Shown: positions 12,284 to 28,557 of the stretch, piece after piece
How positions within the stretch are numbered: the first letter of the stretch is position 1
How the letters are laid out: each line of letters opens with the position of its first letter
IMG/VR virus record: IMGVR_UViG_3300020171_000010
Span: 1-44,962 of that record
DNA length: 44,962 bases
Reading direction: 5' to 3' (one strand)
Source: a virus
Position numbers and translations under genes: made by a program
The notes under the pieces: model-generated
Told to the model about the DNA's origin: nothing
The model's database searches: none
What the model saw: only the letters and a program-made list of their open reading frames with translations

Positions 12284-14467
12284 ATGAAATACTTAAAGTA
12301 TTTCCTTATGGCTCTATTCATTTTAATCACAACAGTGAATGGAGCCATAGCAGCAACCGATAGATATAATGATGGAGCTTGGAAAATTGATGCTACTGGA
12401 AATTTAGTTACTGTGGCTACTTCTAATTCTATCACTATCGGTGATTCAACACATTATCCCGCCTCGATATATTTAGGCGGGACAGGTAAATCATCCTGGG
12501 GTTCTATTGTTTCGCCCTGGGAAGATTCAGGCACGACAACCTTATTGACCTCAGCACCGACATACTTTATCCTGACGCATTCAAGTGGTAATTTATTTGC
12601 TTCAGGTGTTACAACAGGGTATGCTGGTGAAACATTTGTTAATGGGTTGACGATAACGGAGAATACTGATAATGCGTTAGTATTTACCGAGAACAGCGAT
12701 ACTTTGTCAATGAAATTTGATGGTTCAAGTATTGAGTTAGAAATACCGACAGGAACTGGACCATTATTGATTGACAACAATCACGCAACGGCTTCAGAGG
12801 CATCAGTCAACTTCGCATTAGGTGCGGATGATGATGATTACCTGCGTATCTCAACAATATCGAATGTTCCTAAAATTGATACTGTAGGCGGATGTAATCT
12901 TGATATTGTTCCTGCAGGTGGGACATTGGCGTTGACAGGGACATTGACAGCAAGTGTAGCGGTAAGTGCTGCGACTGTTCAGTCTAATGGTGATATCACC
13001 TTGCAGAACGGCGAATTGATAGGTAATAGCGGAACTGATATTGTTACCGTTACATCAAATGGCACGGATGCGACATTGAAAGTTATTAGCGCAGGTGATG
13101 AGTCAGATACTTATTTGTATTTGACTTGCGACAAGGACGATGATGCTGCTGATGACTGGATATTCAAATCCGTTGCATCAACCAACGCCTTGCAAATCAC
13201 TAATGGCGCGACAATGGTAGCTTCTATGGCAACAACTGGTGCGTTTACTTCCGCTGATATGACAATCATCGGCACAACTCCGTTATTGACTATTGGTGAT
13301 GCAGGAACCGAAGATAACGCAATCGTGTTTGATAATGTTTCGATGCCAGATTTTTATATCGGCTCGGATTATGATAACACAGTATTGGCTATCGGGACAG
13401 GTTCTACAATAGGCACGAACCAGATACTTGCAGTTACCGGCCCATCAGTAGTTATCATCGGAGATGGCGATACACAGGATAATGTTCTTAGGTTTGACCA
13501 GACTTCCGGTCCTGACTTGTATATTGCGGGTGATTACTCAACAGGTGCATTATCAATAGGTACAGGTGCGACAGTAGGGACAAACCAAATCTTGTCAGTA
13601 TCTGGTCCATCTATTGTTACAATTGGTGACGGAGACACGCAAGATAATGTTCTCGTTTGGGATGGTTCAAATGATTATTACATCGCAAACGATAATAGTC
13701 AGGCGATGCTACAAATTGGTACTGGTTCAACGGTCAATTCCAATGTATGTCTTACGGTATCCGGTCCGACAATCATCATTGGTGATGCAGACACGCAAGA
13801 CAATACGATATTGTTTGATGGCAATGACCACGATTTTTACATTGCCAACGATGTAAGTGCAAACTCACTTATTATCGGGTCAGGGGCAACCGTTGCGACA
13901 ACTCCGATATTGACTCTTGACAATGCGATGAATGCGACGTTCTCCAATAGTTTGACTGTTAATGGTATATTAACCGCGACAAAAGTTTCGGTTATGCCAT
14001 TACCAATTTACAGTATGCTTTCGACTGCTGCGACTGTATTCACATCATCAACAACTCCGATATTGACGGCAACGAATAATTCGGTAGCATTATACTGGAT
14101 GGATAACAACACATCTGCTGCAACCATAACGTTCAGAGTGCCTGACGACTTTTATTCAGGCGGGGCGTTTAGGGCTGTAGTTGATTGTATCTCAGCATCT
14201 TCAGTGCAACCAGCGATTGACTATTCGGTATATGTCAACGGTGATGGTGGAACATATGATAGTGCTGTTACAGATCAGACACCCGCGATATTAACAAGCG
14301 GACATTCAGGAACTCCTGAAACAGTTACATTATCAGTAACGACTGATTTCGCAACTATTCAGGCCGCAAGTTATGTTACGGTTAATGTTTGGAGAGATAA
14401 CGTAAGGGCAAGTCCAGCGTATCTCACATTGTATTATCTTGAGTTCTACTATACATCGAGGAGTTAA
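12284..14467 (+). CDS. Tail fibre-like protein with an N-terminal signal peptide and internal tandem repeats
   Basis: N-terminus MKYLKYFLMALFILITTVNGAIA|AT. It contains four ~55-aa repeats and is S/T/G/D-rich. Confidence 0.6.
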   Translation: MKYLKYFLMALFILITTVNGAIAATDRYNDGAWKIDATGNLVTVATSNSITIGDSTHYPASIYLGGTGKSSWGSIVSPWEDSGTTTLLTSAPTYFILTHSSGNLFASGVTTGYAGETFVNGLTITENTDNALVFTENSDTLSMKFDGSSIELEIPTGTGPLLIDNNHATASEASVNFALGADDDDYLRISTISNVPKIDTVGGCNLDIVPAGGTLALTGTLTASVAVSAATVQSNGDITLQNGELIGNSGTDIVTVTSNGTDATLKVISAGDESDTYLYLTCDKDDDAADDWIFKSVASTNALQITNGATMVASMATTGAFTSADMTIIGTTPLLTIGDAGTEDNAIVFDNVSMPDFYIGSDYDNTVLAIGTGSTIGTNQILAVTGPSVVIIGDGDTQDNVLRFDQTSGPDLYIAGDYSTGALSIGTGATVGTNQILSVSGPSIVTIGDGDTQDNVLVWDGSNDYYIANDNSQAMLQIGTGSTVNSNVCLTVSGPTIIIGDADTQDNTILFDGNDHDFYIANDVSANSLIIGSGATVATTPILTLDNAMNATFSNSLTVNGILTATKVSVMPLPIYSMLSTAATVFTSSTTPILTATNNSVALYWMDNNTSAATITFRVPDDFYSGGAFRAVVDCISASSVQPAIDYSVYVNGDGGTYDSAVTDQTPAILTSGHSGTPETVTLSVTTDFATIQAASYVTVNVWRDNVRASPAYLTLYYLEFYYTSRS
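13289..13921 (+). repeat. In-frame tandem repeat, four units of about 49-55 aa
   Basis: Units begin TIGDAGTEDN, IIGDGDTQDN, TIGDGDTQDN and IIGDADTQDN. Each continues ..FD....D.YIA.D.....L.IGTG.T.G.NQIL.V.GPS. Confidence 0.85.
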
Positions 14468-14478
14468 GTAAGAGATAT

Positions 14479-14525
14479 AGATAAGGGGTGGGGGTAATTC
14501 CTCACTCCTTATCTAAATTTATTTT
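14479..14525 (+). terminator. Strong hairpin / terminator-like element
   Basis: AGATAAGGGGTG pairs with CACTCCTTATCT in a stem of about 12-15 bp including G-U pairs. It is followed by AAATTTATTTT. Confidence 0.5.
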
Positions 14526-14529
14526 AAGT

Positions 14530-15702
14530 ATGAAAGAAATTAAATTAAAATTAGTAACATTTATTGTGTTGTTAATAGGTGCATTAGGTTTTACACCTGG
14601 TCTTCTTCCTTTTCGTTTAGGCGAAGAACTGATGTCGCAGTTGGCGATAGTCCTATTTATCGCCATATTTTATATCAAGAACAGATGGATTGGAGTATTC
14701 TTGTTATGGAATATCGTAAGGTTTTATCTCGGCATAAACAATATGTCGATTTGGACGATACATACAACCATATTTTATGTGGTATTATATCAAATGTTGT
14801 TTGACAAATTTAACAAAAATAATATAGACATAATCCTCGACGGTATATGCCTTGTGGCGATATACCAAGTCTGTTCAATGACCTTGCAATTTATGGGAAT
14901 ATGGGTGCATATAATCCCATTGACGTTAAAAGACGGCGGAACGTTTATTACATTTTTTAGCAGGACAAAATTCTCGATGACACTTGTAGATAATATCCCA
15001 TATTACTGGTCAACATTAACAGGGTTTACAAGTAATGTGACTATGGCATCTGGATTATTAGCGATGTGCTTGCCTGCGTTTTTCAGGAAGAAATGGTATC
15101 CGGGAATAATCCTTGTGGTAATAGGGTTATTAATGGCAAAAGCGATGTCGGGGATAGTTGCGGCGATAATCATAAGCACTATATACATTTGGGTATCTCA
15201 TTCTAAAATACGGTGGCAAACAATATCTGTATTATTGGCAATGTTTATCACATATATTTTGATAAGCGAGAACCACGAACAACTGTTAAACGGAAGTGGC
15301 AGATGGGAAACTTGGAGATTTATAATAACTAAACTCATTCCAAAACGGTGGATTATCGGATGGGGCGTAGGTCAAGCACCGGCATTATGGCCGATAATCT
15401 CTAAAGAAACGTCGTTTAAAGGAATCGCCTGGATACACGCGCATAATGAGTATATAAACCTATGGCTTGAGTATGGGGTCATCGGGTTTGTTATTGGTAT
15501 GGGGTATGTATTCACTCTGGTTAAAAACGGCTTTATAAATATTACAAAAGATAAAACTAAACTACTTATATTTCTTGGTGCGGTATCGGGATTACTTAAC
15601 TGTATGGTGAGTTTCCCTCTGCACGTTACGATAGGATTTATGTTAGTAGTATATTTAGCGATATTAGATAAATTAAATAAGGAGGAACAATGCGTAAATT
15701 AA
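14530..15702 (+). CDS. O-antigen ligase / Wzy_C-family polytopic membrane protein (WaaL, Wzy or PglL-like)
   Basis: About 10-12 hydrophobic segments. Hallmark motifs are SGRWETW, IIGWGVGQ and HAHNEYINLWLEYGVIGFV (the H.HN.yL...E.G.iG box). No Shine-Dalgarno sequence precedes ATG 14530. The track's alternative start at 14488 lies inside the hairpin. Confidence 0.8.
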   Translation: MKEIKLKLVTFIVLLIGALGFTPGLLPFRLGEELMSQLAIVLFIAIFYIKNRWIGVFLLWNIVRFYLGINNMSIWTIHTTIFYVVLYQMLFDKFNKNNIDIILDGICLVAIYQVCSMTLQFMGIWVHIIPLTLKDGGTFITFFSRTKFSMTLVDNIPYYWSTLTGFTSNVTMASGLLAMCLPAFFRKKWYPGIILVVIGLLMAKAMSGIVAAIIISTIYIWVSHSKIRWQTISVLLAMFITYILISENHEQLLNGSGRWETWRFIITKLIPKRWIIGWGVGQAPALWPIISKETSFKGIAWIHAHNEYINLWLEYGVIGFVIGMGYVFTLVKNGFINITKDKTKLLIFLGAVSGLLNCMVSFPLHVTIGFMLVVYLAILDKLNKEEQCVN

Positions 15703-16139
15703 TTTTAGGGTTAATGATTTTAGGATTATTCGTATCAAATGCGTTTGCGTATATGGGAACTACAACAGTGGTTGCCAGCGATACTTCGACTGATATTCTC
15801 GTGACTACCGCAGCGACGGTTTATACCCATTCGTTTATAATGAGATCTAAAGACCCGACGATGATGACTTATTCTTATCTTATCACATCGGAAGGTGGCA
15901 CACCCAATGTTAATATACAATTCCAACAATCGGTTAAAGAACCGACCACAGAAGGTGCAAGTGATACATATTGGTCGGAACCTATTGGAGTAAAAGCTAT
16001 TGTTACAGGTGAAACTTCCGAATCTTTGCAACAAGCTACTTTTGACACAGTAACATTACCTTATGGTAGATTTATAATTAACGAAACCGGATCGTCCACA
16101 GAAACCACGGTAAATCTCTGGGTAACAAGTATGGAATAA
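15690..16139 (+). CDS. Secreted beta-rich protein (signal peptide)
   Basis: N-terminus MRKLILGLMILGLFVSNAFA|YMG. T/S-rich, with an AAGGAGGA ribosome-binding site. Confidence 0.6.
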   Translation: MRKLILGLMILGLFVSNAFAYMGTTTVVASDTSTDILVTTAATVYTHSFIMRSKDPTMMTYSYLITSEGGTPNVNIQFQQSVKEPTTEGASDTYWSEPIGVKAIVTGETSESLQQATFDTVTLPYGRFIINETGSSTETTVNLWVTSME

Positions 16140-16153
16140 AATAAGGGGTGAAT

Positions 16154-16501
16154 ATGGGCAAATCAAAATTCTTAAAACCCGATATAACCACATCGCAGAA
16201 TTTACTCAATGGGGCATTGTCCTATACTACGACACTCACACAGGCGTTTCAGTTAGAGGAAATACATTTTCATTTTTCGGAGAATGTAACCGAAACAATC
16301 ACAATAATATTAGATTCAATACACGGTGATAATTATGATACGGTATTAAGAACAATCAATCTTAATGCCGAAGATGATGCGGTATATCGTCCGCCGGTAA
16401 AAGTAAATTATGCCGTAGGCGACCAGATAAAAATACAATGCACACAAGCAAATCTTGCAGGTATTGTTTATGCAACTATTAAAATTTCAGAACCGTCGTA
16501 A
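16154..16501 (+). CDS. Hypothetical beta-rich protein
   Basis: ORF 16148..16501. ATG at 16154 follows AAGGGG. No signal peptide. Confidence 0.55.
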   Translation: MGKSKFLKPDITTSQNLLNGALSYTTTLTQAFQLEEIHFHFSENVTETITIILDSIHGDNYDTVLRTINLNAEDDAVYRPPVKVNYAVGDQIKIQCTQANLAGIVYATIKISEPS

Positions 16502-16513
16502 CCAGGAGGAAAT

Positions 16514-17377
16514 ATGGAATTGAAAGACATTGCAAAATTGGAAGAAGAAGTAAAAATAAAACAGGCAAGATTCGTCGAGTTGAATAAAGAATATGACGGG
16601 TTGTTCAACAAGAAACTGGATTTATTAAAAGAGATTATCAGTATTGATAATAAACGCAAAAGCGGGGCGGATAAACTAAAAGAAGTTAATGATACCATTT
16701 CTAAGTTAAATGAGGAAGTAAGGAAAAAGAAAACTGAATTGACTGCCGTAACCAAAGATTCCGACAATAAGATTGCGGAAGTTCAGGATAAGATAGACGA
16801 ATTGAATAAGGTATCAATCGAGATTGCCGATAAACAACAGGCATTAGACAGGGATACCGCAACCCAAAAAGAACAGAAGATAGAATTGAGTAGGGGTTCA
16901 GGTGCAATAGAACGAGCGAGATTTGAACTTGACAAGCAAAATGTGGTATTAAAAGAAAAAGAGAAAATGTTTGACTTTAAAAATAAATCATTGAATTCGG
17001 AACGCGAGGATATCGCAAAGAAACAATCCGAACATGAAAATACCACAGTCAGACTTGTTGCGTTATCAGACCAGTTGGAAACGAAGAAAAAAGAGTTAGA
17101 TGAGAAACAGTCCGAACTAAATGTGCTTAATCTTAATATAACGAATAAACAAAAAGAGATTGAAGCACTAATAGAAGAATTAAAGAAAAAGATTAGTGAA
17201 GCCGTATTAGCCAAGAAGTCAGCGGACTCATTAGCCGAAACACTTGAACGATCCATCGGTAATTTGCAGAACAGGGAAGATTTATTAAAAGTCAGGGAAT
17301 TAAGGTTTACAAAATTACTTAATGAGAAACTAACCAAAGAAGAAATTGAAAGATTAGAAAAATCGTTAGCTAAATGA
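16514..17377 (+). CDS. Coiled-coil protein
   Basis: 287 aa, K/E/L-rich with heptad-like character throughout. GGAGGA ribosome-binding site. Confidence 0.6.
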   Translation: MELKDIAKLEEEVKIKQARFVELNKEYDGLFNKKLDLLKEIISIDNKRKSGADKLKEVNDTISKLNEEVRKKKTELTAVTKDSDNKIAEVQDKIDELNKVSIEIADKQQALDRDTATQKEQKIELSRGSGAIERARFELDKQNVVLKEKEKMFDFKNKSLNSEREDIAKKQSEHENTTVRLVALSDQLETKKKELDEKQSELNVLNLNITNKQKEIEALIEELKKKISEAVLAKKSADSLAETLERSIGNLQNREDLLKVRELRFTKLLNEKLTKEEIERLEKSLAK

Positions 17378-19074
17378 AAAAACTTCTTTTACTCTTAATT
17401 CTTCTTGCCTGGCAGATACCTTGTTATTCCCAAGATTATGTCGGTGGTTACGAACAAACAAATGCCGAGATATTTGATTTTACCGCAATAGCCACTCCCG
17501 CCACATCTACCACCAATACTGCAAGGATATATTATAATCCCAATGAAGATAAACTCAAGTTATCGGTTAATAATGGAAATTTCTCGAATATATTTACTAT
17601 AGCAGATGATCACGATGCAATAACGGTAAGTAATACCACTGATATTGATTTATTCCTAAGCACCCAAGCACTTAACGCCACACTTAATACTACCCTTAAA
17701 TCAAACTACGAAACCGCCTATACCCATTCCCAGAATACCACTTCAGCGCACAATTTAACTATTGCGAATGTCCCAAATCTCAATGCCGCCAACACCTTCG
17801 GCGCATACAACCAGACATTTGATACGAATACATTTTTTATAGATTCGGTGAATAATAGAGTTGCTATCGGGACGACGACTCCTCTAAGTTTGTTACATAT
17901 GAGTGGGGATTCTCCTGGATTGCGTATTACGAATACCGATACTACTGGTATTGGTCAGGTTACTTTTTTTGAAAATGCCGGCATCAAGGGCGCCGTTAAT
18001 ATGGTTGGGTCTGCTTATACAACAACAAGTCGTCGAAATGTTTTAGAACTTTATTCTGGAAACGATTTGTCTTTGTGGTCGGGAGGAACGGAATCGGTAA
18101 GAATAAAATCTGGCAGCGTCGGCATCGGCACAACTTTACCCGCCACCACTCTCGATGTCAATGGCACTATTAACGCCACCACTTACACAGGTGGGAATAT
18201 TACGAATTACGATACCGCCTATACTCACAGTCAAGCCACCACAGGCACGGTTCACGGATTGAATTTGACCGCAGTAAACGCTACGGAATTCAGTTATCTC
18301 GATGGGGTAACATCTGCGATACAAACACAGTTAGATAGTAAAGGAACATCTAACCTCACCGCCAACGATACCGTTTATGGTGCAGGGTGGAATGGGACAA
18401 CTACTGAAGTGCCATCTCAAAATGTTTTATGGGATAAGATAGAAACCATCTCGGCTGGAGCACAAACTCCCTGGGCTCAGAATATAGACGGTGGAGGGTA
18501 TAATCTTACAAATGCGACAAATATTACTGCAGTTAATTTTATAGGAACTGGAGTATGCGATTTTGGCGGGGCGACTTCATTTGAAATTCCTAATGCCGCA
18601 AATCCGACTTTAGGGACTACTGGTATGATAGCGATAAATACTGCCGATAAAACTCTTGAATTAAATAATGGTGCTAATCAAATTTCATTCCCGACAATTC
18701 ATATTTTACAGGGGCCTCTCGGCACGGGTGATTATGACACCGACCCTGATGTTTGGCTGATAGACTCACACGCCGATACTTTCCCACACGGAATTTATAT
18801 TACTAAAGTATATGTGGATTGCAATGAGGCAGACCCTACGACTGAATTGAATGCTGACTTAAAATATTGCGATGCGGTAGCAGATGGTGCTTTCCCAGGA
18901 GCTAATGTAACAGTTATTCAAGCATTGGATACTACCACAGGCAATATGGCTAATGCTACCGTTAATACCGCAGTTGCTACTGGCAAGAGTTTATACATAA
19001 CAATAGACATAGACCCGACATCAGATACTACTATTTTTCACGTAAGAATTCACTATTATATACCCACTTCCTAA
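17374..19074 (+). CDS. Tail fibre protein with an N-terminal signal peptide
   Basis: N-terminus MKKLLLLLILLAWQIPCYS|QD. Fibre motifs are NRVAIGTTTPLSLLHMSG, GSVGIGTTLPATTLDVNG and EFSYLDGVTSAIQTQLDSK, plus a duplicated NY(E/D)TAYTHSQ. ATGA coupling upstream. Confidence 0.7.
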   Translation: MKKLLLLLILLAWQIPCYSQDYVGGYEQTNAEIFDFTAIATPATSTTNTARIYYNPNEDKLKLSVNNGNFSNIFTIADDHDAITVSNTTDIDLFLSTQALNATLNTTLKSNYETAYTHSQNTTSAHNLTIANVPNLNAANTFGAYNQTFDTNTFFIDSVNNRVAIGTTTPLSLLHMSGDSPGLRITNTDTTGIGQVTFFENAGIKGAVNMVGSAYTTTSRRNVLELYSGNDLSLWSGGTESVRIKSGSVGIGTTLPATTLDVNGTINATTYTGGNITNYDTAYTHSQATTGTVHGLNLTAVNATEFSYLDGVTSAIQTQLDSKGTSNLTANDTVYGAGWNGTTTEVPSQNVLWDKIETISAGAQTPWAQNIDGGGYNLTNATNITAVNFIGTGVCDFGGATSFEIPNAANPTLGTTGMIAINTADKTLELNNGANQISFPTIHILQGPLGTGDYDTDPDVWLIDSHADTFPHGIYITKVYVDCNEADPTTELNADLKYCDAVADGAFPGANVTVIQALDTTTGNMANATVNTAVATGKSLYITIDIDPTSDTTIFHVRIHYYIPTS

Positions 19075-19084
19075 AGGAGAATAT

Positions 19085-19516
19085 ATGCGATTTCTAATTA
19101 TTTTCTTTTTATTAACTTCAGTATGTTTTGCAGGCGAAGTCTTATATCCTATCCCAGAAAATCCCAAAGGTATGAAGATAACTTATGATGACAAATATTC
19201 TCTTAAAGATTTTACAGGAAAGAATTTGTTAGACGCTACTGATTTAGAAGGAACTATTATTTATGCTTCTTGTTTCTCACAGGAATTACCTCCTGATGTT
19301 GATAAAGGAAAAGTAAAGGTATTTCCTGATAGCATTAAGAAAATAACTTTTATCAACTGCAACCTTGATAATGTCAAAATCAATAAACCTGGATGGGTAG
19401 TTACTGGTGGAAGTGAAAGAAATTTTAAGGCACAGAAAAAAGCAGATGGTTCTGATGATGGCGACTGGTTAATAGATAGTGAAGGCAATAAAAGCAAAAG
19501 GGTAAACGAAGAATGA
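19085..19516 (+). CDS. Secreted pentapeptide-repeat-like protein
   Basis: N-terminus MRFLIIFFLLTSVCFA|GE, with pentapeptide-like segments (FTGKNLLDATDLEGT..., FINCNLDNVKI). Confidence 0.5.
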   Translation: MRFLIIFFLLTSVCFAGEVLYPIPENPKGMKITYDDKYSLKDFTGKNLLDATDLEGTIIYASCFSQELPPDVDKGKVKVFPDSIKKITFINCNLDNVKINKPGWVVTGGSERNFKAQKKADGSDDGDWLIDSEGNKSKRVNEE

Positions 19517-20895
19517 AAAAGTTATTATTTTTAATCCTATTTTTACTATTACCAAAATTATGTTTTGGGGCTATCGGTGCAACTTGTGTCTGGGAATTTC
19601 GTTCTACTGCTACTGCAAATATGGTTAATGGTGGCGGATATACTTCTGGTGGAACAGATTACTCCCAACAAGATGCCGCACAATTCGTGCCTACTGACTT
19701 GGCTTGCTTAGATACTTCTACAACCTTAACTTCTGCCACAGGCGGATTTACTGCAGCAATGGTGGGAAACATTATCCATATTACTGCAGGGACTAACTTT
19801 GTTGTTGGCTGGTATGAAATTACCGTTTATACCGATACGAACACTGTAACTATTGACCGAACTGCTGCAAGTGTAGGGTTAAATGCTACTGCGGGAACTG
19901 GCTATGTCGGTGGTGCATTATCTCTTAATTCAACTCTTGATGATGAATTCTTTGACCAATTAGTAGCGGGAAATATAGTTTATATTAAAGCAGGAACATA
20001 CACATTTGTAGAAAATGTAAATCAGCAAGGTTTAAACGGAACAAGTAGTAATCCCTTTATTGTTGAAGGATACAATTCTACAAGAGGAGATAATCCTACT
20101 ACGATAAATAGACCTACTATTGCTGCTGGAGCTTATGAATTTACGCACGGTCAGATGTGGCAATTTTATAATTTGATTATTACAATTACTGGAACTTATG
20201 GGTTATATAGTACTAACAATTCATCCGCTATAAATTGTAAGTCGACTAATAGTAGTGTAAGTGCAAATAGAGCTGCGTTTACTTTTACTAACCAGTCAAT
20301 AATTGCCAGATGTGAAGGAATAAGCACAAATGGTTATGGATTTTATATTATAAATAGCGGTGTGGCTCTTAGTTGTTATGCTCACGATAGCAGTAAAGGT
20401 TATCGTTTAGGCACTAGTGGAGTGTACGTTATCAATTCTATAGCTGATACTTGCACTGTAGGAATTGATTTTAATGCTGACTATTCATCAAGTATAGATA
20501 ATACAATTTATAATTGCACCACAGGAATATTGGAAACTCCAAGTGGATATTTTGAAGCAGTGGTAAACAATATTATTACTAATTGTGCTACAGGAATGTC
20601 TTGGGGTACTACACAAAAAAGAGGATATATAGATTATAACTGCTGGAACAATACAACCGATACCGTAAATGTAACCAAGGGTGACCATGATATAACTGCG
20701 AACCCCCTGTTAACTGACCCAGCAAATGGAGATTTTACTCTTCAATCAGGAAGCCCCTGTTTAGACGCAGGTATGCAAGTGGGAGTTAATCAGGGGGCAG
20801 TAGGGGATTACAAAGTAAATATCGGCGTTGACCAAGATGATGTTACTGTTGCAGGTGCAGGCGGTGGCAGAGGAGCAAGATTTATAAATAATTAA
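19513..20895 (+). CDS. Right-handed parallel beta-helix protein (putative tailspike/depolymerase) with a signal peptide
   Basis: N-terminus MKKLLFLILFLLLPKLCFG|AI. It has repeated PbH1-like turns (N..I..C....G). The C-terminal motif DPANGDFTLQSGSPCLDAG is typical of beta-helix proteins. Confidence 0.65.
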   Translation: MKKLLFLILFLLLPKLCFGAIGATCVWEFRSTATANMVNGGGYTSGGTDYSQQDAAQFVPTDLACLDTSTTLTSATGGFTAAMVGNIIHITAGTNFVVGWYEITVYTDTNTVTIDRTAASVGLNATAGTGYVGGALSLNSTLDDEFFDQLVAGNIVYIKAGTYTFVENVNQQGLNGTSSNPFIVEGYNSTRGDNPTTINRPTIAAGAYEFTHGQMWQFYNLIITITGTYGLYSTNNSSAINCKSTNSSVSANRAAFTFTNQSIIARCEGISTNGYGFYIINSGVALSCYAHDSSKGYRLGTSGVYVINSIADTCTVGIDFNADYSSSIDNTIYNCTTGILETPSGYFEAVVNNIITNCATGMSWGTTQKRGYIDYNCWNNTTDTVNVTKGDHDITANPLLTDPANGDFTLQSGSPCLDAGMQVGVNQGAVGDYKVNIGVDQDDVTVAGAGGGRGARFINN

Positions 20896-20909
20896 ACAGA
20901 GAATAACTG

Positions 20910-22274: not shown

Positions 22275-22291
22275 TAAATAAATTTCTACAT

Positions 22292-22822: not shown

Positions 22823-22845
22823 ATAAAAGGGCTTTTTTCAGCGTG

Positions 22846-22920
22846 CTTATTAAGAACGGTTAAGTCCTTACGCTTACTCAAAGCCCAAGTTTTAGACATA
22901 GAAAAACCGTTCTCAATAAG
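22846..22920. repeat. Inverted repeat in the 5' UTR of the antisense HNH gene
   Basis: CTTATTAAGAACGGTT (22846..22861) against AACCGTTCTCAATAAG (22905..22920). 15 of 16 positions are complementary. Confidence 0.7.
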
Positions 22921-22927
22921 TAATTTT

Positions 22928-22955
22928 AGTATAACAGAATTTCAGGAATTGTCAA
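22928..22955 (-). promoter_or_regulatory. Sigma70-like promoter for the antisense HNH gene
   Basis: The minus strand reads TTGACA-16 nt-TATACT. On the plus strand this is TGTCAA at 22950..22955 and AGTATA at 22928..22933. Confidence 0.6.
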
Positions 22956-22998
22956 TATAAAAATAGGGCAAGATTGATACGCTTGTGTTAAGATTAAA

Positions 22999-23295: not shown

Positions 23296-23336
23296 AACTA
23301 TAGGAAATTTGTCAATATAAAAAGGGGGATTAAAAA

Positions 23337-24008
23337 ATGACACGGTCGGAAATAATTTCGGCATTTAGAGTAGATAATTCAGAGTTGACCTCCAATGTTA
23401 TTACAGATGCACAATTACATAATTATTTATTATTTGGCGATAAAGAAGTATGTGCTATTACCCGGTGTATTGTATCCGATAAAGTATTCCATTCCGTTGC
23501 CTCAACGTCGGTATATGACACCAGATATGATTTGACTAATGAGATTGATAATTTTTTTGATATCGATGATTTCCCTGGCGGAGGGGTATCTTTTGATGAT
23601 GACCCATTAGATAAAACTACCGTAGCACAACTTGACCAGGAATCATCTACTTGGCGCACAAGAACCGCAGGGGTTCCAAAGAAATATTATCGCAGAAGTA
23701 AATATCTTTATTTTGACCGACCTGTAAAGACTGCCGCATTAGATATTCGTGTATATTGCGTCTTAATATCCGATGATTTTAATAATGATGATATTCTACC
23801 GTTTAACCAATTGACATATTTAGAACCATTCCATTCTGTATTAGTAATGTATCTTAAATGGAAAGCAAAAGCTAAAGTAGGCAAACCACAGGACGCAGCG
23901 ACAGCGAAACAGGAATTTTACGATTATTGCCAATTTATGAAAAAGACTATTCAGGGTGGGACTGCGGGGCCTATACAATATAAACCTTCAATATATCCAA
24001 GAAGATGA
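23337..24008 (+). CDS. Putative head-tail adaptor / tail tubular protein A-like
   Basis: 223 aa, immediately upstream of and coupled to a 770-aa protein. This parallels the T7 gp11/gp12 arrangement. Inferred from size and synteny only. Confidence 0.35.
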   Translation: MTRSEIISAFRVDNSELTSNVITDAQLHNYLLFGDKEVCAITRCIVSDKVFHSVASTSVYDTRYDLTNEIDNFFDIDDFPGGGVSFDDDPLDKTTVAQLDQESSTWRTRTAGVPKKYYRRSKYLYFDRPVKTAALDIRVYCVLISDDFNNDDILPFNQLTYLEPFHSVLVMYLKWKAKAKVGKPQDAATAKQEFYDYCQFMKKTIQGGTAGPIQYKPSIYPRR

Positions 24009-26317
24009 AAAGACTACTCATATTTTTATTATTCCTATCAAGCAATTGTTTTGCTCAAGAAGCAGTAAAAAACCAGATTTATGTCTTCGACGAATTTTCT
24101 GGTGGATTGGTCTCAAAAATATCCGAATTCGGACTTCCCAAAAATTACGGTACAGTTGTAGAGAACGCAAGACCTGGCGCGGAATTAAAAACACTTACCA
24201 AACGAGATGAGATATTATCTTATGGTTCGGCAGATTCAACTGAAGCCATACTTGGTATGCACCGACTATATTTGAAAGATGGAACAAAAGTTTTAATCGT
24301 CAATCACGGGAACGAGATAGAAACAGGTACAGACAGTTCAGGTGCGTTTTCTACAATCCTTAATGTTAATACAGAGGGTTACCGTTGGCAATGGGTAACT
24401 TGGCAGAATGAGGCCATAGGTACAGACGGGTATAATTATCTCGTAAAATATGATGGTTCATCGGCAACAGGTACTTATGTCGGTTCATTACTTCCTCTTG
24501 CACTTACTACTGGAGGGGGCCCCAGCGATACTTATACTTATAAAGTAACCGCTTATACCACGCCAAGCACGATTGAGGTAACCTTTGGTTCGACATCGGC
24601 TTCTGTAACAGTAGCCAATAAAGATGTGCAGTTGTCAATGATACCCATTGGCCCAGACTCTTTCGGTGGTGAATCTATATTAGGCCGCAAGATTTACCGT
24701 ACTGCAACAGACGATACTACATATTATCTTTTAACCACTATTGCGGATAATTCCACAACCACTTATACCGATTCATACGCAAACGGGGAATTAAGTTCGG
24801 CTTATGGTACGCCTACTGCTACATATATCCCGCCAAAAGGTAAGTATATTTTAGTACATAAAAATAGGTTATTTATTGCAGGCGACCCAAGTTATCCTTC
24901 ACGGATATATTATTCAGAAGATGGACTTCCTGATTATTTCCCGGCAACAAATTATTTTAATATCCGGTTAGATGACGGTGATTCAATCACATTTATTAAG
25001 AATCTATTGGGTATTTTAACCATCGGCAAGAATAACACTATCCAAAAACTTTATACTGATGGTTCAGACCCTTCCGCTGATTGGGCGATTTCTGACCCAT
25101 TCTCATTTAAAGGTTGTGCCGCACCGTATAGCGCAATCAACTCTCCATTAGGTATAATCTATTTAGGTAGTGATGGGATATATAAATTCAATGGTCAATA
25201 TTCCACATTGATTTCTGACCAAGTTACTCCTGAGATTAAAGATATATCCCCATCAAATTTCGTAAACTGTTGGGGTATATTCCACAACAATATGTATTAC
25301 CTTGCATATACTTCCCACGAATCAGGAGGGACATATAATAACAGGATATTAATATACGATACACTTAATAGTTCATACACTAAAGATTTATGTAATATCA
25401 ATACCTTTTGCACATTTGGTTCGGGTACAGATTGGGATACATTATATGCCGGTTCAAGTGTGGGAGGCACGGTTTATTCATATGGGGGTACTGCACGAGA
25501 AATATTGCACAAGAAACATTCGGATTTTAGCGGAACATTTACTAATGCGAGATATATCCCTACAACCGCAGGTGGAGATGCTGACAGTGCGATATTAGAA
25601 TTATCAAGAACAGAAACAATAAACTCGATGTCCGGTACGATAAATGCGCAGGTAGGGGATATTGATAGGGCTATCGCAACAGGAACGTATGTGTCTCCGA
25701 TATTAAATATCAATTCTGTAACACTTGATAAACTGTATTGGAACGAAAATTTAAGTGCTGTTGGTGATATTACATTTAATATCCGCGCCTCAGATTCTTC
25801 GGTGCATTGTGAAGCTGAAACTTGGGGGACTACCGACCATACCAACTCATTGGGTTCAGATTTATCCTCAGATTCCGCCGGCGATTATCTGCAATATAAA
25901 ATAAACCTTGAAACTTCTGATTTAGATTATACGCCTACTTTATACGAGAATAATAATTACGTTATCAGGCTTACTTATTTAATGGAAGGTACGACCAATG
26001 AATCCACCGTACCGTTTAAATGGGAATCCGGCTGGCTTGATTTCGGGTATCCAGGGTATAAGAAAACATTGCGTAAAATATATTGTCTATACGAATCCGA
26101 AAGTTCAGGAACACTTAACATCACATTCGAGAATTTAGAGGGAGAAACGAGTTTATTCACAATACCTCTTATTACTTATCCTTCAAGTTATACCGAATAT
26201 TTTTCAGGTGGGGCATTTACCGGAGAATGGTTAAAACTTGAAATTAATGAATCGAGTTTGAATAGTTTAAAAATTAAGAAGATAATTTGTATATACGATG
26301 TCGAACCTTTAATATGA
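24005..26317 (+). CDS. Putative tail tubular protein B / nozzle-like protein with an N-terminal signal peptide
   Basis: 770 aa, N-terminus MKRLLIFLLFLSSNCFA|QE, ATGA-coupled upstream. The call rests on size and position, with no motif. Confidence 0.35.
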   Translation: MKRLLIFLLFLSSNCFAQEAVKNQIYVFDEFSGGLVSKISEFGLPKNYGTVVENARPGAELKTLTKRDEILSYGSADSTEAILGMHRLYLKDGTKVLIVNHGNEIETGTDSSGAFSTILNVNTEGYRWQWVTWQNEAIGTDGYNYLVKYDGSSATGTYVGSLLPLALTTGGGPSDTYTYKVTAYTTPSTIEVTFGSTSASVTVANKDVQLSMIPIGPDSFGGESILGRKIYRTATDDTTYYLLTTIADNSTTTYTDSYANGELSSAYGTPTATYIPPKGKYILVHKNRLFIAGDPSYPSRIYYSEDGLPDYFPATNYFNIRLDDGDSITFIKNLLGILTIGKNNTIQKLYTDGSDPSADWAISDPFSFKGCAAPYSAINSPLGIIYLGSDGIYKFNGQYSTLISDQVTPEIKDISPSNFVNCWGIFHNNMYYLAYTSHESGGTYNNRILIYDTLNSSYTKDLCNINTFCTFGSGTDWDTLYAGSSVGGTVYSYGGTAREILHKKHSDFSGTFTNARYIPTTAGGDADSAILELSRTETINSMSGTINAQVGDIDRAIATGTYVSPILNINSVTLDKLYWNENLSAVGDITFNIRASDSSVHCEAETWGTTDHTNSLGSDLSSDSAGDYLQYKINLETSDLDYTPTLYENNNYVIRLTYLMEGTTNESTVPFKWESGWLDFGYPGYKKTLRKIYCLYESESSGTLNITFENLEGETSLFTIPLITYPSSYTEYFSGGAFTGEWLKLEINESSLNSLKIKKIICIYDVEPLI

Positions 26318-26799
26318 GAATACTTATATTTTTATTAACCTTATTTTTTGCTATATCTTGTTACGCGCAAGAAGTCATTGTTGATTTTGCTTCAGATTCC
26401 ACAGTAATTCTTAATGATGAACTGAGAAAAAAAATAACAAAGGAATATGTGGACAGCACATGGGAGGATTACTCGGCAACTTCTACAATTACAGGATGGT
26501 CAAGTTTTACAATTAAACAAATCTATGTCAAAAAAATAGGTAAGACAGTGTTTGTAAGTTATACATTCGAAGGCACGAGTAATTCAACAAAGGTATATTT
26601 TACGCTTCCATACGACATGAGCAATACTTCTTATGCATTAGGTTCCGGAAACGATAACTCAACTGGGGCTGTGGTTAATTTAGTTGTTATACGGTATACG
26701 GCTTCAACGATAAATATTTATGCAACCCTTGTAAGCAATACTTGGACTAACAGTGGGATTAAATCCTGTTTTGGACAATTCTGGTATGTAACAAATTAA
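26314..26799 (+). CDS. Secreted beta-sandwich protein (fibre-tip-like)
   Basis: The ATG at 26314 overlaps the upstream TGA. N-terminus MRILIFLLTLFFAISCYA|QE. Confidence 0.55.
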   Translation: MRILIFLLTLFFAISCYAQEVIVDFASDSTVILNDELRKKITKEYVDSTWEDYSATSTITGWSSFTIKQIYVKKIGKTVFVSYTFEGTSNSTKVYFTLPYDMSNTSYALGSGNDNSTGAVVNLVVIRYTASTINIYATLVSNTWTNSGIKSCFGQFWYVTN

Positions 26800-26808
26800 G
26801 GAGGGAAT

Positions 26809-27567
26809 ATGAAAAAGTTATTATTAACAATTACAATTTTATTGTTTTCAATCTCGCGGGCATATGCGGTTGGTTGGGATGTGGACGCACCTGCTGGTAC
26901 AGATTCAGCAAGTGATATTGATTCACTCATAGGTGTAAATAATTCTGCTCTTGATTTATTATTAGCAGGATATCGCCAAAATGCGCAGATGGTATATTTA
27001 TCTTCATCAACTTTGACGGTAAATGCGGGTGAAGTAGTAGTAACTAATTCTGGCGGGACGGTTCGGTTAATGTTAAGGAACACATCAACCACGACAGTTT
27101 CCTGGGCGAATGCGGATTGTGGTGAAGTACCCAGTGCAACTTTTTATATATACGCTTATTGCACGGCAACAACCGATACCACATTCTCAATAAAGCTTTC
27201 TAACTCATCTACCACACCGTTGGGGGTAATTTATTATAAACGGCTCGGTTCATTTTATAATGATTCAGCGGGGAATATCACACTTATAAACAACGATGAC
27301 GATTTAGGGGAATTTGGGGATTGGACTGCTAAATCAACCAATACATCATATCAGGCGTTCACTGATGGGTTCTTCATTGTTTACGGTTCCCTCTCAGGTT
27401 CCGGATATATATATTCTGATGCAGTTTCAAATCCGGCTACAAAAAGAGGGGCGATTGATGCTGTTGCTGCGATTAGTTCAGCGATGGTGCCAGTTAAAAA
27501 AGGAGATTATTATAAATTCACACTTTTAGATGGCTCGGCAACTGTATGGTGGGTGCCGTTACAATAG
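26809..27567 (+). CDS. Secreted fibre-like protein
   Basis: N-terminus MKKLLLTITILLFSISRAYA|VG. It carries the APAGTDSASDIDSLIGVNNSALD motif seen in fibre proteins. AAGGAGGG ribosome-binding site. Confidence 0.55.
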   Translation: MKKLLLTITILLFSISRAYAVGWDVDAPAGTDSASDIDSLIGVNNSALDLLLAGYRQNAQMVYLSSSTLTVNAGEVVVTNSGGTVRLMLRNTSTTTVSWANADCGEVPSATFYIYAYCTATTDTTFSIKLSNSSTTPLGVIYYKRLGSFYNDSAGNITLINNDDDLGEFGDWTAKSTNTSYQAFTDGFFIVYGSLSGSGYIYSDAVSNPATKRGAIDAVAAISSAMVPVKKGDYYKFTLLDGSATVWWVPLQ

Positions 27568-27576
27568 GAGGATTAA

Positions 27577-27951
27577 ATGAAGTTTATTATTATCGGTATA
27601 CTTTTATTATTTGTTACACCGTGTTTTGCAGAAACATACATTATTTTTAATTCCGATACCCAAGAGGTTTTATCCGTTTCGCCACAAGATGACGCAGTAA
27701 TGCCACAAACAGGATACACGAAAATTATCATAAAAGATAACTTTTGGGACTTGGATTTACAATATCCTCACCAATGGTATAAGTGGTCGGGGTCAAGACT
27801 AATTCCAAATACAAAGAAATTAGATGAGGAAGCGATAAAAGAGGAAAAGGTTAGAGAGAAAGTTGAACAGGAAAAACTTATAAATGATGAATTGCGTTCT
27901 GTTGCGATAGAACGATTAAAGGCAAAAGGAATTAATATCAAAGAGGAATAG
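27577..27951 (+). CDS. Secreted protein with a charged helical C-terminus
   Basis: N-terminus MKFIIIGILLLFVTPCFA|ET. TAGGAGGA ribosome-binding site. Confidence 0.55.
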   Translation: MKFIIIGILLLFVTPCFAETYIIFNSDTQEVLSVSPQDDAVMPQTGYTKIIIKDNFWDLDLQYPHQWYKWSGSRLIPNTKKLDEEAIKEEKVREKVEQEKLINDELRSVAIERLKAKGINIKEE

Positions 27952-28556: not shown

Positions 28557-28557
28557 T

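Follow-up and report, generated by a model that had tools for sequence, protein, structure and literature searches.

The question raised by this locus is whether a tailed phage can carry functional export signals on parts of its own tail. The window, i.e. the whole stretch of 44,962 nucleotides analysed, is the complete genome (~45 kb) of a podophage with a 112-bp terminal repeat. Sec-type signals are present on its nozzle, fibres and a tailspike-like protein and are absent from the head and its internal proteins, both in the window and in relatives. The signal-bearing parts beyond the adaptor are the nozzle, three small to medium-sized post-nozzle proteins, two fibre-like proteins, a beta-helix protein and two small proteins, while none of the capsid, portal, scaffold, adaptor and ejection proteins of the window has a signal. 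All identifiable components distal to the adaptor are thus predicted to carry a cleavable type-I Sec signal grafted on a conventional N-terminus, a pattern which suggests periplasmic export of the outer tail. No case of outer-tail export in a tailed phage was found in the literature searched, and we know of no tailed phage which exports its outer tail to the periplasm. The trait is common to a large uncultured lineage and a few separate ones.

Signal peptides in the tail block

N-termini were examined with a rule-based test requiring a net positive n-region, an uncharged core with a mean Kyte-Doolittle hydropathy ≥ 2.0, small residues at -3 and -1, and no Pro at +1. The test was positive for all nine tail-block ORFs named in a sequence-only reading of this DNA, whose coordinates and N-termini were as described there, and for the ORF at 32294. 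In each of these ten, a K/R n-region precedes a hydrophobic core, which is followed by a small-x-small cleavage site. Two sites were read by eye: CYS↓QD at 17374, where the test cut too early (after Ala12), and AYA↓VG (Ala20) at 26809, where it cut at Ala18. The block contains the following features (↓, predicted cut):

12284..14467, + strand: 727-aa repeat-rich fibre-like protein, four ~45-aa repeats in the translation; signal peptide residues 1-23 (nt 12284-12352), AIA↓AT, Shine-Dalgarno
14488..15702, + strand: Wzy_C / O-antigen-ligase-family polytopic membrane protein within the tail operon (Pfam PF04932, 42.6 bits, cut-off 31.7)
15690..16139, + strand: 149-aa protein (phrog_28213); signal peptide residues 1-20 (nt 15690-15749), AFA↓YM
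16148..16501, + strand: 117-aa protein without signal, no hydrophobic N-terminus
16514..17377, + strand: 287-aa coiled coil without signal, no hydrophobic N-terminus
17374..19074, + strand: 566-aa tail-fibre protein with fibre motifs, ATGA-coupled start; signal peptide residues 1-19 (nt 17374-17430), CYS↓QD
19085..19516, + strand: 143-aa protein; signal peptide residues 1-16 (nt 19085-19132), CFA↓GE
19513..20895, + strand: 460-aa right-handed parallel beta-helix protein, tailspike / polysaccharide depolymerase-like (AF2, Foldseek), ATGA-coupled; signal peptide residues 1-19 (nt 19513-19569), CFG↓AI
23337..24008, + strand: 223-aa head-to-tail adaptor without signal (phrog_399)
24005..26317, + strand: 770-aa tail nozzle of T7 gp12 / P22 gp10 / SU10 fold (AF2, Foldseek), ATGA-coupled to the adaptor gene; signal peptide residues 1-17 (nt 24005-24055), CFA↓QE
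26314..26799, + strand: 161-aa protein directly after the nozzle, ATGA-coupled; signal peptide residues 1-18 (nt 26314-26367), CYA↓QE
26809..27567, + strand: 252-aa conserved distal-tail protein; signal peptide residues 1-20 (nt 26809-26868), AYA↓VG
27577..27951, + strand: 124-aa protein; signal peptide residues 1-18 (nt 27577-27630), CFA↓ET

The predicted signal peptides are 16-23 aa long with h-regions of ~10-14 residues. In none of the ten signal-bearing proteins (the nine and 32294) do mature residues 1-12 carry a net positive charge, which suits translocation. The number nine was correct, but the ORFs are not strictly consecutive as first described: signals are present in 9/18 genes of the block, and Wzy_C, the 117-aa protein, the 287-aa coiled coil (together a conserved signal-less pair, 16148..17377), an 81-aa membrane-anchored protein, homing endonucleases and the adaptor are interspersed without signal. 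Elsewhere in the window, signals occur in 2/45 genes (Fisher p = 8e-5). In a simpler screen for hydrophobic N-termini, 0/56 structural genes of three signal-less relatives (L019, L022 and L023) were positive (p = 4e-7).

Mis-called starts, or secreted host-like cargo genes instead of virion proteins, would explain these N-termini as an artefact. Only the general expectation that structural proteins of tailed phages are signal-less speaks for this. The starts at 17374, 19513, 24005 and 26314 are fixed by ATGA overlap with the upstream stop, as the sequence-only reading had held, and the other five have AGGAG-type Shine-Dalgarno sequences at correct spacing. The same N-terminal architecture recurs in homologues from hundreds of independent assemblies, and close homologues retain the hydrophobic segment instead of starting downstream of it. 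The cargo version is excluded by the nozzle fold, the neighbouring adaptor and the single nozzle gene in a complete genome; the modelled structures are not those of secreted proteins of ordinary host type. An artefact is therefore hardly credible, and for the nozzle, the beta-helix protein and the 252-aa protein it is effectively refuted.

Nozzle and adaptor

The 770-aa protein had been placed in the position of T7 gp12. Its AF2 model (pLDDT 89) matches T7 gp12, SU10 and P22 gp10; each of the best 28 Foldseek PDB matches is a tail or nozzle structure of a podophage (E = 1e-23 to 1e-9), and the BFVD matches include proteins named P22 Gp10 or stabilisation protein. On the basis of this model, the protein was confirmed as a true nozzle. 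Its gene is single in the complete genome. The adaptor, whose orthologues match Pfam SU10_adaptor, is encoded immediately upstream and has no hydrophobic N-terminus in any locus examined.

The fold is shared with the podophage nozzles T7 gp12, SU10 nozzle, P22 gp10, cyanophage A4, P-SCSP1u and LME-1 at an identity of only ~10%, as are the gene position directly after an SU10-type adaptor and a similar N-terminal G-G-L/I motif. With hhalign, nozzle residues 28-76 were aligned weakly (E = 0.68) to T7 gp12 residues 8-54. Whereas T7 gp12 and signal-less homologues start a few residues ahead of the motif with no hydrophobic leader, the window nozzle has a 17-residue Sec-type signal.

By a strict test, at least 106 of the 120 homologues of the nozzle (48-58% identity) keep the signal, most of the others being truncated gene calls. 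In the alignment, conservation is 22-62% for the h-region columns, 78-86% for the -1 Ala and 86% for the +1 Gln, with a small or aliphatic residue at -3; -1 and +1 are the best-conserved of the first 28 residues. Conservation of the h-region, which the sequence-only reading had proposed to check, thus holds for the hydrophobic property, while the core sequence drifts. The wider nozzle family is mostly signal-less (profile search of 1.84 billion proteins). Signal-less nozzles begin 7-16 residues ahead of a conserved G-G/M-L/N motif, like T7 gp12, and the median residue of this motif is 37 with signal and 17 without. Since property instead of sequence is conserved, since -1 and +1 are conserved, and since the cut reproduces the N-terminus of signal-less orthologues, the N-termini are predicted to behave as cleavable Sec/SPase I signals. 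The cysteine count of nozzle homologues (even in 53, odd in 61) has no even bias, so oxidative folding does not appear to be the reason for export.

Alternatively, uncleaved signal-anchors or stalled Sec substrates could gather the tail parts at the inner membrane, with their bulk remaining cytoplasmic. All distal tail parts do have hydrophobic N-termini, and the segment is a detached low-confidence helix in the AF2 models. Yet h-regions of ~10-14 residues are too short for a stable transmembrane anchor, an N-in signal peptide places the mature chain outside the membrane, and the predicted mature N-termini coincide with the native ones of signal-less orthologues. The conserved -1 Ala, -3 and +1 Gln make sense only with cleavage on the periplasmic face, which argues against a purely tethered, uncleaved anchor. 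We regard tethering as highly unlikely.

Beta-helix, fibre-like and small tail proteins

The parallel beta-helix of the sequence-only reading was recovered in the 460-aa protein. Its AF2 model (pLDDT 91) matches Klebsiella phage depolymerases, PL6, pectate lyases and the LKA1 and CBA120 tailspikes in Foldseek, and homologues match Pfam Beta_helix, NosD and DUF5123. By fold, nozzle and tailspike-like beta-helix are predicted to be virion hardware in their mature parts. Among 120 beta-helix homologues, 55 have a signal and 65 do not. The signal-less N-termini read M-ALNAxTVWE and the signal-bearing ones ...CFG↓AIGATCVWE, so that the predicted cut recreates the N-terminus of the signal-less orthologues.

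The fibre motifs noticed earlier were found in the 566-aa protein, which by tblastn has segments in common with proteins annotated as tail fibres in Roseobacter phage CRP-1 and in uncultured phages. Signal-bearing homologues or orthologues exist for the 727-aa protein (L020), the 149-aa protein (L001, L016) and the 124-aa protein (L001, L009, L015, L017), and weak ones for the 161-aa protein (L014, L017). The signal-less 117-aa protein has counterparts of 47-58% identity in L001, L015 and L016. The 252-aa protein has orthologues in L001, L009, L014, L016 and L017, of which those in L016 and L017 match Pfam mtd_2nd (Mtd is a receptor-binding protein); its signal-less orthologues (L019, L021) begin at the c-region.

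Distribution among relatives

In L001, L004, L009, L012 and L014-L017, signals are found on the nozzle, the post-nozzle proteins and the visible upstream fibre-like proteins, and adaptor and ejection proteins are signal-less throughout. In relatives with a signal-less nozzle or beta-helix protein, most or all structural genes are signal-less. From these sequences, the signal would be a trait of the whole module. It also has the appearance of an add-on, as distant nozzle, beta-helix and 252-aa orthologues start at the predicted mature end. A rough NJ tree of nozzles has one large all-signal clade and several isolated signal-bearing nozzles; L024 and L025, isolated on the tree, have signal-bearing fibres and nozzle and a signal-less adaptor. 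The signal was apparently acquired on several occasions, often with a Wzy_C enzyme as neighbour.

In L020, the fibre-like proteins are signal-bearing and the nozzle is signal-less. Peripheral export therefore needs no nozzle export, and the peripheral proteins may have a non-virion role. Most of the exported fibre, tailspike and nozzle protein might act in the envelope of the infected cell (receptor destruction or masking, exclusion of superinfecting phage, release), with virions built in the cytoplasm from a minority of escaped precursor or after late Sec shutdown. The pattern in L020 would fit a separate function of the peripheral proteins in the envelope, the beta-helix protein is similar to depolymerases of capsule and EPS, and phages do export receptor-blocking proteins such as T5 Llp. 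However, surface remodelling alone cannot account for the signal on the sole nozzle gene: the signal is kept in nearly all 120 homologues, although no function in the envelope is obvious for a nozzle. Downstream of the signal peptide there is no internal start codon from which a signal-less isoform could be made. An uncleaved precursor would have 16-23 extra hydrophobic residues at the docking end, whereas the cut regenerates the exact N-terminus of signal-less orthologues, indicating that the cleaved form docks on the virion. We consider such dual use unlikely, although it deserves some weight.

Comparison with known exported proteins

The 460-aa protein shares fold and N-terminal domain with beta-helix depolymerases (Klebsiella phages K64-1 S2-4, NTUH-K2044-K1-1 lyase and P560; LKA1 gp49; CBA120 TSP3). 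To our knowledge, the tailspikes and depolymerases of Klebsiella phages, LKA1 and CBA120 are synthesised in the cytoplasm without signal peptides, unlike the 55 signal-bearing members of the window family; those examined are in phages with other signal-bearing tail proteins.

Inoviridae pIII and pVIII have signal peptides, and these virions assemble at and through the envelope. They are the only well-known phage virion proteins with Sec/YidC signals cut by signal peptidase I that we are aware of. They are inner-membrane proteins, and their ssDNA is extruded without lysis; the window phage, by contrast, has a dsDNA icosahedral head, portal, terminase, ejection proteins and a lysis cassette, and there is no homology. 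Sec/SAR endolysins (fOg44 Lys44, P1 Lyz) and exported accessory proteins (lambda Lom and Bor, T5 Llp) use host Sec as well, their counterpart in the window being the SLT at 35650. These are non-virion lysis or exclusion factors, one or two per phage, whereas in the window the whole distal tail is concerned.

The Wzy_C family includes WaaL O-antigen ligase, Wzy polymerase and the PglL/PilO O-oligosaccharyltransferases. The window protein is polytopic with a conserved Arg and an AHNEY His motif; the GxGxG...AHNEY motif is conserved with L001 and L016. Known phage Wzy-type genes serve serotype conversion in temperate phages. The window gene differs in lying in a late tail operon. A Wzy_C gene lies within the module, beside signal-bearing tail genes, in four signal-type loci (upstream of them again in L016 and L024) and in 0/5 signal-less or mixed loci; some signal-type loci (L014, L025) have none.

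A paper on the phage-fibre-like mosaic adhesive trimer fibres of Bdellovibrio (PMC10769870) deals with signal peptides and the periplasm as well. By analogy, this suggests that phage-fibre-like folds can work outside the cytoplasm, although these are described there as bacterial predation genes and not as part of a phage particle.

Downstream genes and host

Three features follow the tail block:

27951..31959, + strand: signal-less boundary set of a 201-aa cupin-like and three ejection / internal-virion-like proteins (253, 360 and 515 aa)
32294..32710, + strand: 138-aa small outer-membrane-like protein; signal peptide nt 32294-32359, AMA↓QE; ends ...LEIKF
35650..36261, + strand: 203-aa SLT lytic transglycosylase (Pfam SLT, E = 4e-12; PHROG endolysin / lytic tail protein)

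Orthologues of the boundary set are signal-less in all loci. The sequence-only reading had placed two further signals here. That at 32294 was upheld by the rule-based test; the C-terminus of this protein resembles an outer-membrane beta-signal, its neighbours are holin-like membrane proteins, and family searches gave no match. The SLT at 35650 has a long charged n-region and an N-terminal export/SAR-like segment, and from its sequence is taken to be an endolysin of the ordinary exported or SAR type.

A diderm host is probable, given the short signals, the OMP-like protein ending in Phe, the small lipoproteins with Cys-containing lipobox-like signals encoded by relatives, and the GroES, whose closest named relatives are from Omnitrophota. 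An unusual host could itself account for the trait, if head and tail meet in an atypical or enlarged periplasm (perhaps of an ultra-small PVC-group bacterium, e.g. Omnitrophota) or if particles enter the periplasm before lysis. The GroES relatives in Omnitrophota would fit such a host, beta-helix homologues occur in MAGs of Planctomycetota (signal-bearing) and Dehalococcoidia (signal-less), and the trait is lineage-wide and recurrent, as expected of a host-linked adaptation. However, this host evidence is very weak, being one short protein of 100 aa and MAG binning, and related contigs are binned in unrelated MAGs, including Paceibacterota and Nanoarchaeota. Moreover, heads must start in the cytoplasm, since capsid and portal are signal-less. 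This explanation is distinctly unlikely.

Proposed export of the outer tail

We tentatively favour, at slightly less than an even chance, a model in which the outer-tail proteins are exported by Sec, cleaved and matured in the periplasm, and join cytoplasmic heads after failure of the inner membrane. Late in infection, pre-proteins would be made, translocated via SecYEG and cut by signal peptidase I, and the distal tail would fold, and probably pre-assemble, in the periplasm. Adaptor-capped, DNA-filled heads would wait in the cytoplasm, and adaptor and nozzle would join only once the inner membrane is breached by the holin/endolysin system. Since filled T3/T7 and P22 heads can take on tail parts in vitro, late joining is physically possible. 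Against this export model, DNA tends to escape from the heads of characterised podophages when the tail plug is missing, making delayed nozzle addition risky. In known phages, Sec/SAR endolysins are often paired with pinholins, and heads cannot pass the small holes that these make; as the window endolysin is Sec/SAR-like, head and tail might mix only at the final burst.

Wzy_C-family enzymes transfer undecaprenyl-linked glycans, and the co-encoded enzyme may modify the tail proteins in the periplasm, an idea kept alive by its recurrence beside the module. The exported tailspike or receptor-binding set could also remove or hide receptors of the dying cell, and selection could on this account have favoured export of the peripheral proteins first.

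Genome organization and gene content

An exact 112-bp direct repeat occupies both ends of the window (1-112 and 44851-44962). Thus, the window is a complete genome of ~44.85 kb, which is either terminally redundant or circularly assembled. The G+C content is 31-40%, all plausible genes except one lie on the + strand, and SD-like motifs were found upstream of 36 of the 62 genes, compared with 14% at random positions. The main features outside the signal-bearing genes are as follows.

1812-2108, second, very divergent Cpn10-like ORF
2282-2584, full-length GroES co-chaperonin (NCBIfam, E = 1e-33)
3061-4350, + strand, large terminase
14488-15702, + strand, Wzy_C protein of 404 aa (Pfam PF04932, 42.6 bits, gathering score 31.7)
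23337-24008, + strand, adaptor-like protein
27951-28556, 201-aa protein (PHROG 'tail fiber adhesin / short tail fiber', E = 6e-31)
28558-31959, + strand, ejection-like proteins
32088-34156, likely lysis cluster with a 69-aa, a signal-bearing 138-aa, an N-terminally anchored 103-aa and a multi-pass 153-aa protein, interrupted by an HNH gene
34158-34565, VRR-NUC nuclease of the recombination module
36942-38329, ERF single-strand annealing protein and YqaJ exonuclease of the same module
11530-12282, 21329-21982, 22292-22822 (- strand), 33084-33707 and 39212-40153, five HNH-type homing-endonuclease-like genes

The portal (742 aa) was identified from its place in the gene order together with a weak tblastn match to a 'head to tail connecting protein', and a coiled-coil scaffold-like protein from position only; the major capsid protein has 308 aa. 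No family match was obtained for the four proteins of the lysis cluster, Pfam scans of about 30 of the 62 ORFs gave no integrase, and no tRNAs were found in the window. The terminase ORF is short (429 aa) and covers only positions 264-604 of the 807-position PHROG profile, and 83 nt at its start are shared with a 127-aa ORF (region 2760-4350); the gene may be split, frameshifted or interrupted. The HNH-type gene at 22292-22822 is the only convincing gene on the - strand, and the long low-complexity ORF overlapping it on the + strand (22271-22960) is probably spurious.

No close cultured phage was found: among 50,697 phage records, tblastn with portal and nozzle queries gave remote partial matches only. 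An exact-protein contig look-up with the nozzle gave no record, and a viral-contig scan with protein P0277 gave no relatives.

Signal peptides in the tail block

Sec/SPase I signal peptides were called using a rule-based test, which demands a net positive n-region, an uncharged core with a mean hydropathy ≥ 2.0, a -3/-1 site and no Pro at +1. A sequence-only reading had described such signals on nine consecutive fibre, tailspike and nozzle-like proteins. The translations agree with it on the nine ORFs and their N-termini, and all nine were positive, as was the ORF at 32294. The ten starts and their predicted cut sites (arrow) are listed below; the rules cut too early for 17374 and 26809, and the sites of these two were read by eye.

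12284, fibre-like protein (727 aa), AIA↓A
15690, tail-block protein, AFA↓Y
17374, tail fibre (566 aa), CYS↓Q
19085, tail-block protein, CFA↓G
19513, beta-helix protein (460 aa), CFG↓A
24005, nozzle (770 aa), CFA↓Q
26314, tail-block protein, CYA↓Q
26809, 252-aa protein, AYA↓V
27577, tail-block protein, CFA↓E
32294, 138-aa protein of the lysis cluster, AMA↓Q

The nine are not strictly consecutive, but make up 9 of the 18 genes of the block, whereas elsewhere in the window 2 of 45 genes carry a signal (p = 8e-5). When 56 structural genes of three related signal-less phages were screened for hydrophobic N-termini, none was flagged (p = 4e-7). Four of the nine starts are fixed by ATGA coupling to the upstream stop, as had been claimed, and the five others are preceded by AGGAG-type SD sites. 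Two further signals had been placed outside the block. The one at 32294 was confirmed by the test, and this protein ends in Phe like an outer-membrane beta-barrel; the other (35650) belongs to an ordinary exported SLT endolysin. The remaining positives were three short membrane-anchored or multi-pass proteins (20910, 32719, 33695) of a type seen in lysis cassettes.

All ten signals carry 1-2 K/R within the first 2-6 residues, an uncharged h-region with a mean hydropathy of 2.2-3.9, small residues at -1 and -3 and no Pro at +1. Their total length is 16-23 aa, with an h-region shorter than a transmembrane helix (criterion roughly 7-15 residues), and the first 12 mature residues have a net charge of 0 to -3 in every signal-bearing protein of the window. 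From these features, translocation and cleavage of the proteins are predicted.

Other types of N-terminus were considered and rejected. A lipoprotein signal does not apply, since the Cys is at -3 instead of +1, is preceded by L/I/V or N, and no lipobox is present; this recurrent Cys is absent from many nozzle and beta-helix homologues. Tat and type IV pilin signals were dismissed, as neither a twin-arginine nor a G↓F prepilin site occurs. A signal-less isoform from an alternative start was dismissed as well, because no in-frame Met follows the signal peptide in the window or the homologues.

Identity of the signal-bearing proteins

The AF2 model of the nozzle, based on an alignment of 66 homologues, had a pLDDT of 89 and a pTM of 0.83. 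Its top 28 Foldseek matches in the PDB were all podophage portal-tail or nozzle structures with probability 1.00, including cyanophage A4, Pa223, Carin-1, LME-1, T7 gp12, SU10, Kp9, GP4 and P22 gp10, and its structural matches in BFVD include proteins labelled P22 Gp10 or stabilisation protein. The gene is ATGA-coupled to the 223-aa adaptor gene directly upstream, the orthologues of which match Pfam SU10_adaptor. Fold and neighbouring adaptor thus bear out the proposal that the 770-aa protein is a nozzle of the T7 gp12 kind. Both properties, the fold and the position after the adaptor, are those of the T7 gp12/P22 gp10 family. The 17-aa signal is the defining departure, since T7 gp12 and dozens of distant homologues have none. 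A PDB sequence search with the nozzle profile gave nothing significant. In an hhalign comparison with T7 gp12, residues 28-76 pair with 8-54; this alignment is not significant (E = 0.68) and was used only to see how the two N-termini correspond.

The 460-aa protein was modelled as a right-handed parallel beta-helix (pLDDT 91); the sequence-only reading had listed a parallel beta-helix among the mature parts. Foldseek matched the model to Klebsiella phage depolymerases, PL6 and pectate lyases and the LKA1 and CBA120 tailspikes; homologues match Pfam Beta_helix and NosD, and a PDB sequence search gave nothing significant. Orthologues that lack the signal are encoded among the structural genes of one podophage and one myophage, consistent with a role in the virion.

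Two other proteins were placed by homology. Homologues of the 252-aa protein match the second domain of Mtd, the receptor-binding protein of a Bordetella phage, and the 566-aa protein has segments in common with annotated tail fibres. The view that the mature parts are virion hardware therefore holds for the parts that could be tested, by structure for the nozzle and the 460-aa protein, and by homology for the 252-aa and 566-aa proteins. That the signal-bearing ORFs are artefacts or cargo genes is hardly credible. The 727-aa protein contains four tandem repeats of ~45-50 aa within 13300-13900 (GTGxTxGTNQIL.V.GP..V.IGDGDTQDN.L.FD....D.YIA.D). These repeats and the N-terminal ~110 residues are shared with a signal-bearing 969-aa protein of a related contig (L020). 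PDB sequence searches with two fibre-like proteins gave nothing significant. The 201-aa protein has no signal, and its PDB search gave a weak cupin similarity (E = 0.012) but no significant match; should it indeed belong to the outside of the tail, the pattern would have an exception.

Conservation and add-on character of the signals

A set of 120 nozzle homologues (48-58% identity) drawn from many independent assemblies was analysed, and 106 of these passed the strict signal test. The other 14 comprise five obvious signals missed by the rules, eight gene calls that are truncated at the N-terminus (with the c-region retained in six), and one long N-terminal extension. The median signal length is 20 aa, and the n-region has a charge of +2 in 76 of the 106, the test itself demanding at least +1. 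Ala is found at -1 in 91 of the 106. In the alignment, the h-region columns are 22-62% conserved, compared with 78% for Ala at -1 and 86% for Gln at +1, which are the most conserved among the first 28 columns. A variable h-region next to conserved -1 and +1 positions indicates that hydrophobicity and the cleavage site are under selection, rather than the sequence itself.

When 1.84 billion representative proteins were searched with a profile, 9,642 nozzle relatives were found. Nearly all of the closest ~28 representatives carry the signal, and most of the remaining relatives start M-x(7-16)-[FL]-x-G-[ML]-N, like T7 gp12. The glycine motif lies at median residue 37 with signal and at 17 without, a difference of one signal peptide. 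As read from these alignments, the signal has been added to tail proteins that are otherwise conventional.

The beta-helix homologues are the clearest example. Of 120 sequences, 55 read C-F-G↓A-I-G-A-T-C-V-W-E and 65 begin M↓A-L-N-A-x-T-V-W-E. Hence, the predicted cut recreates the signal-less N-terminus after Met removal, and the predicted cut of the 252-aa protein likewise gives the N-terminus of its signal-less orthologues. Judged from the sequences, both matches would be difficult to account for if the signal were not actually cleaved off at this site. If the N-termini served as uncleaved membrane tethers, neither the conserved cleavage site nor mature ends equal to those of signal-less orthologues would be expected, and this explanation is considered very unlikely.

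Oxidative folding as a rationale for export was unsupported, as 53 nozzle homologues have an even and 61 an odd number of Cys, and only one Cys column is well conserved.

Distribution among related phages

Eight related loci repeat the pattern of the window: the signal is found on the nozzle, on the proteins after it and, where the locus reaches that far, on upstream fibre-like proteins. In none of them does the adaptor, the 117-aa protein, the coiled coil or any ejection protein have it. A related phage with the same gene order and a signal-less nozzle (L019) has a hydrophobic N-terminus on 0 of 21 structural genes. The two phages with a signal-less beta-helix, a podophage of 61% G+C and a myophage, have none on any structural gene. 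The signal characterises whole phages rather than individual genes. An intermediate is represented by L020 (ENA ERZ928008 contig, 41.9 kb), in which three fibre-like proteins between capsid and adaptor carry a signal, one of them a homologue of the 727-aa protein, and the nozzle and everything after it do not. This contig may be a snapshot of the trait spreading through the tail module.

A neighbour-joining tree of 97 nozzle representatives contains one large clade including the window, in which all 24 assessable members are signal-bearing (counted after by-eye correction of four mis-scored or truncated leaves). In addition, a small second signal-bearing clade and three isolated signal-bearing nozzles stand among signal-less lineages. 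Two of the isolated cases (L024 and L025) were examined, and in both the fibres and the nozzle have a signal and the adaptor has none. The trait was apparently acquired several times; because the tree is crude, this number is approximate.

The Wzy_C gene

The window Wzy_C protein shares a GxGxG...AHNEY motif with its orthologues in two related loci (L001, L016), and R272 and AHN(E/D), in agreement with the periplasmic-loop Arg and His expected of the family, are invariant across the three. It had no NCBIfam or PHROG match, and a viral-contig scan with it returned no close viral relatives. In the distant locus L024, a Wzy_C gene lies just upstream of the signal-bearing tail genes. Altogether, four signal-type loci have the gene, as compared with none of the five loci of the signal-less or mixed type that were examined; two signal-type loci, L014 and L025, lack it. 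The association with signal-bearing tails is suggestive only. Enzymes of this family, which includes O-antigen ligases, polymerases and protein O-OTases, work on the periplasmic face with undecaprenyl-linked glycans. The target may be the exported tail or host LPS.

A second type of glycan-related gene associated with the lineage is a GT1-family glycosyltransferase (Pfam Glycos_transf_1) within the tail-gene region of L015 (7410-8429).

Host

Several signs point to a diderm host: the short signals of 16-23 aa, the 32294 protein ending in LEIKF, the SLT endolysin, the Wzy_C gene, and small lipoproteins of the relatives with Cys-containing, lipobox-like signals. The closest named cellular relatives of the GroES are Candidatus Omnitrophota MAGs (57-66% identity), and Omnitrophota is a possible host phylum on this similarity. 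Cpn10 was also seen in relatives (L016). Omnitrophota are ultra-small and have outer-membrane secretins (PMC10066038). A genome scan for hosts and prophages gave two MAG bins only, Paceibacterota and Nanoarchaeota, and this binning of related contigs is probably a composition-based artefact.

Gln at +1 (4 of 10 window signals, 80 of 106 nozzle homologues) recalls the Q-rule of Bacteroidota. This host was dropped because heavy SD use, with SD-like sites at 36/62 genes, does not fit Bacteroidota. Counts of the Bacteroidota O-glycosylation sequon D[ST][AILVMT] (0-7 per protein, no control) were uninformative. An unusual host compartment or exit route as the reason for the signals is distinctly unlikely.

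Proposed assembly route

Our leading explanation, held at slightly less than even confidence, is that the distal tail is exported by Sec, cleaved and folded in the periplasm, and joins adaptor-capped heads at lysis. After removal of the signal, the proteins would fold, perhaps pre-assemble, in the periplasm, where the Wzy_C enzyme may modify them. Until the inner membrane is breached, the tail would not come into contact with the DNA-filled heads, which are capped by the adaptor. Late joining is possible, as T3/T7 and P22 heads accept tail parts in vitro. The L020 intermediate suggests that export started with peripheral proteins, which can be added last and might also strip or mask receptors, and was later extended to the nozzle.

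This route has difficulties. Heads may leak DNA while awaiting the nozzle, the Sec or SAR type of the endolysin points to a possible pinholin, which would open holes too small for heads, and cysteine parity gives no sign of disulfide-dependent folding. Alternatively, the proteins could have a dual use, with a cytoplasmic minority of the tail protein building the virions, which we regard as unlikely.

Relation to known systems and implications

Nozzle, SU10-type adaptor, beta-helix tailspike and Wzy_C belong to known families by fold and position, and the export signal is the sole difference. To our knowledge, no characterised nozzle, tailspike or fibre protein has an export signal, and filamentous phages are the only phages whose virion proteins routinely use Sec signals. 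Those phages are unrelated to the window phage and assemble by extrusion. Inovirus virion proteins are integral to the inner membrane and the particle leaves through a secretin without lysis, whereas the mature window proteins are modelled as soluble folds without C-terminal anchor; the window genome, unlike inoviruses, has a terminase, portal, capsid and lysis cassette. The likeness is limited to the use of Sec signals. Sec-exported endolysins, Lom, Bor and Llp show that phages use Sec, but we know of no case involving core tail parts. No description of Sec signals on nozzle or fibre proteins of tailed phages came up in full-text searches of the literature.

Textbook morphogenesis of tailed phages is wholly cytoplasmic. 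The signal-bearing tail is real, conserved and recurrent, and contradicts this standard picture of tail assembly. Its apparently multiple origins and its occurrence in hundreds of environmental contigs show that it is not a peculiarity of one genome. Annotation of structural genes in viromes would change, because signal peptides commonly count against a virion role; their lack has been taken as support for phage origin (PMC6199706).

The signals are testable as reporter fusions without cultivation of the host, and the predicted mature N-termini, e.g. pyroGlu-EAVKNQIYV of the nozzle, would be detectable by mass spectrometry. Exported receptor-binding proteins or depolymerases might act on the producing cell, and periplasmic glycosylation of virion proteins by the Wzy_C enzyme is a possibility. 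Head-tail joining would have to be timed relative to holin and endolysin action.

More broadly, and tentatively, a widespread uncultured group of tailed phages may have moved its whole distal tail to the periplasm, more than once and often together with a Wzy_C-type enzyme, for which glycosylation of the exported tail or remodelling of the envelope would be possible roles. A conserved cleavable signal on the parts beyond the adaptor would mean either assembly split between compartments or an unrecognised role of Sec signals in tail biogenesis. In the former case, virion assembly would be divided across the inner membrane and completed only at its breach, a new assembly topology for Caudoviricetes and, if confirmed, a categorically new route.
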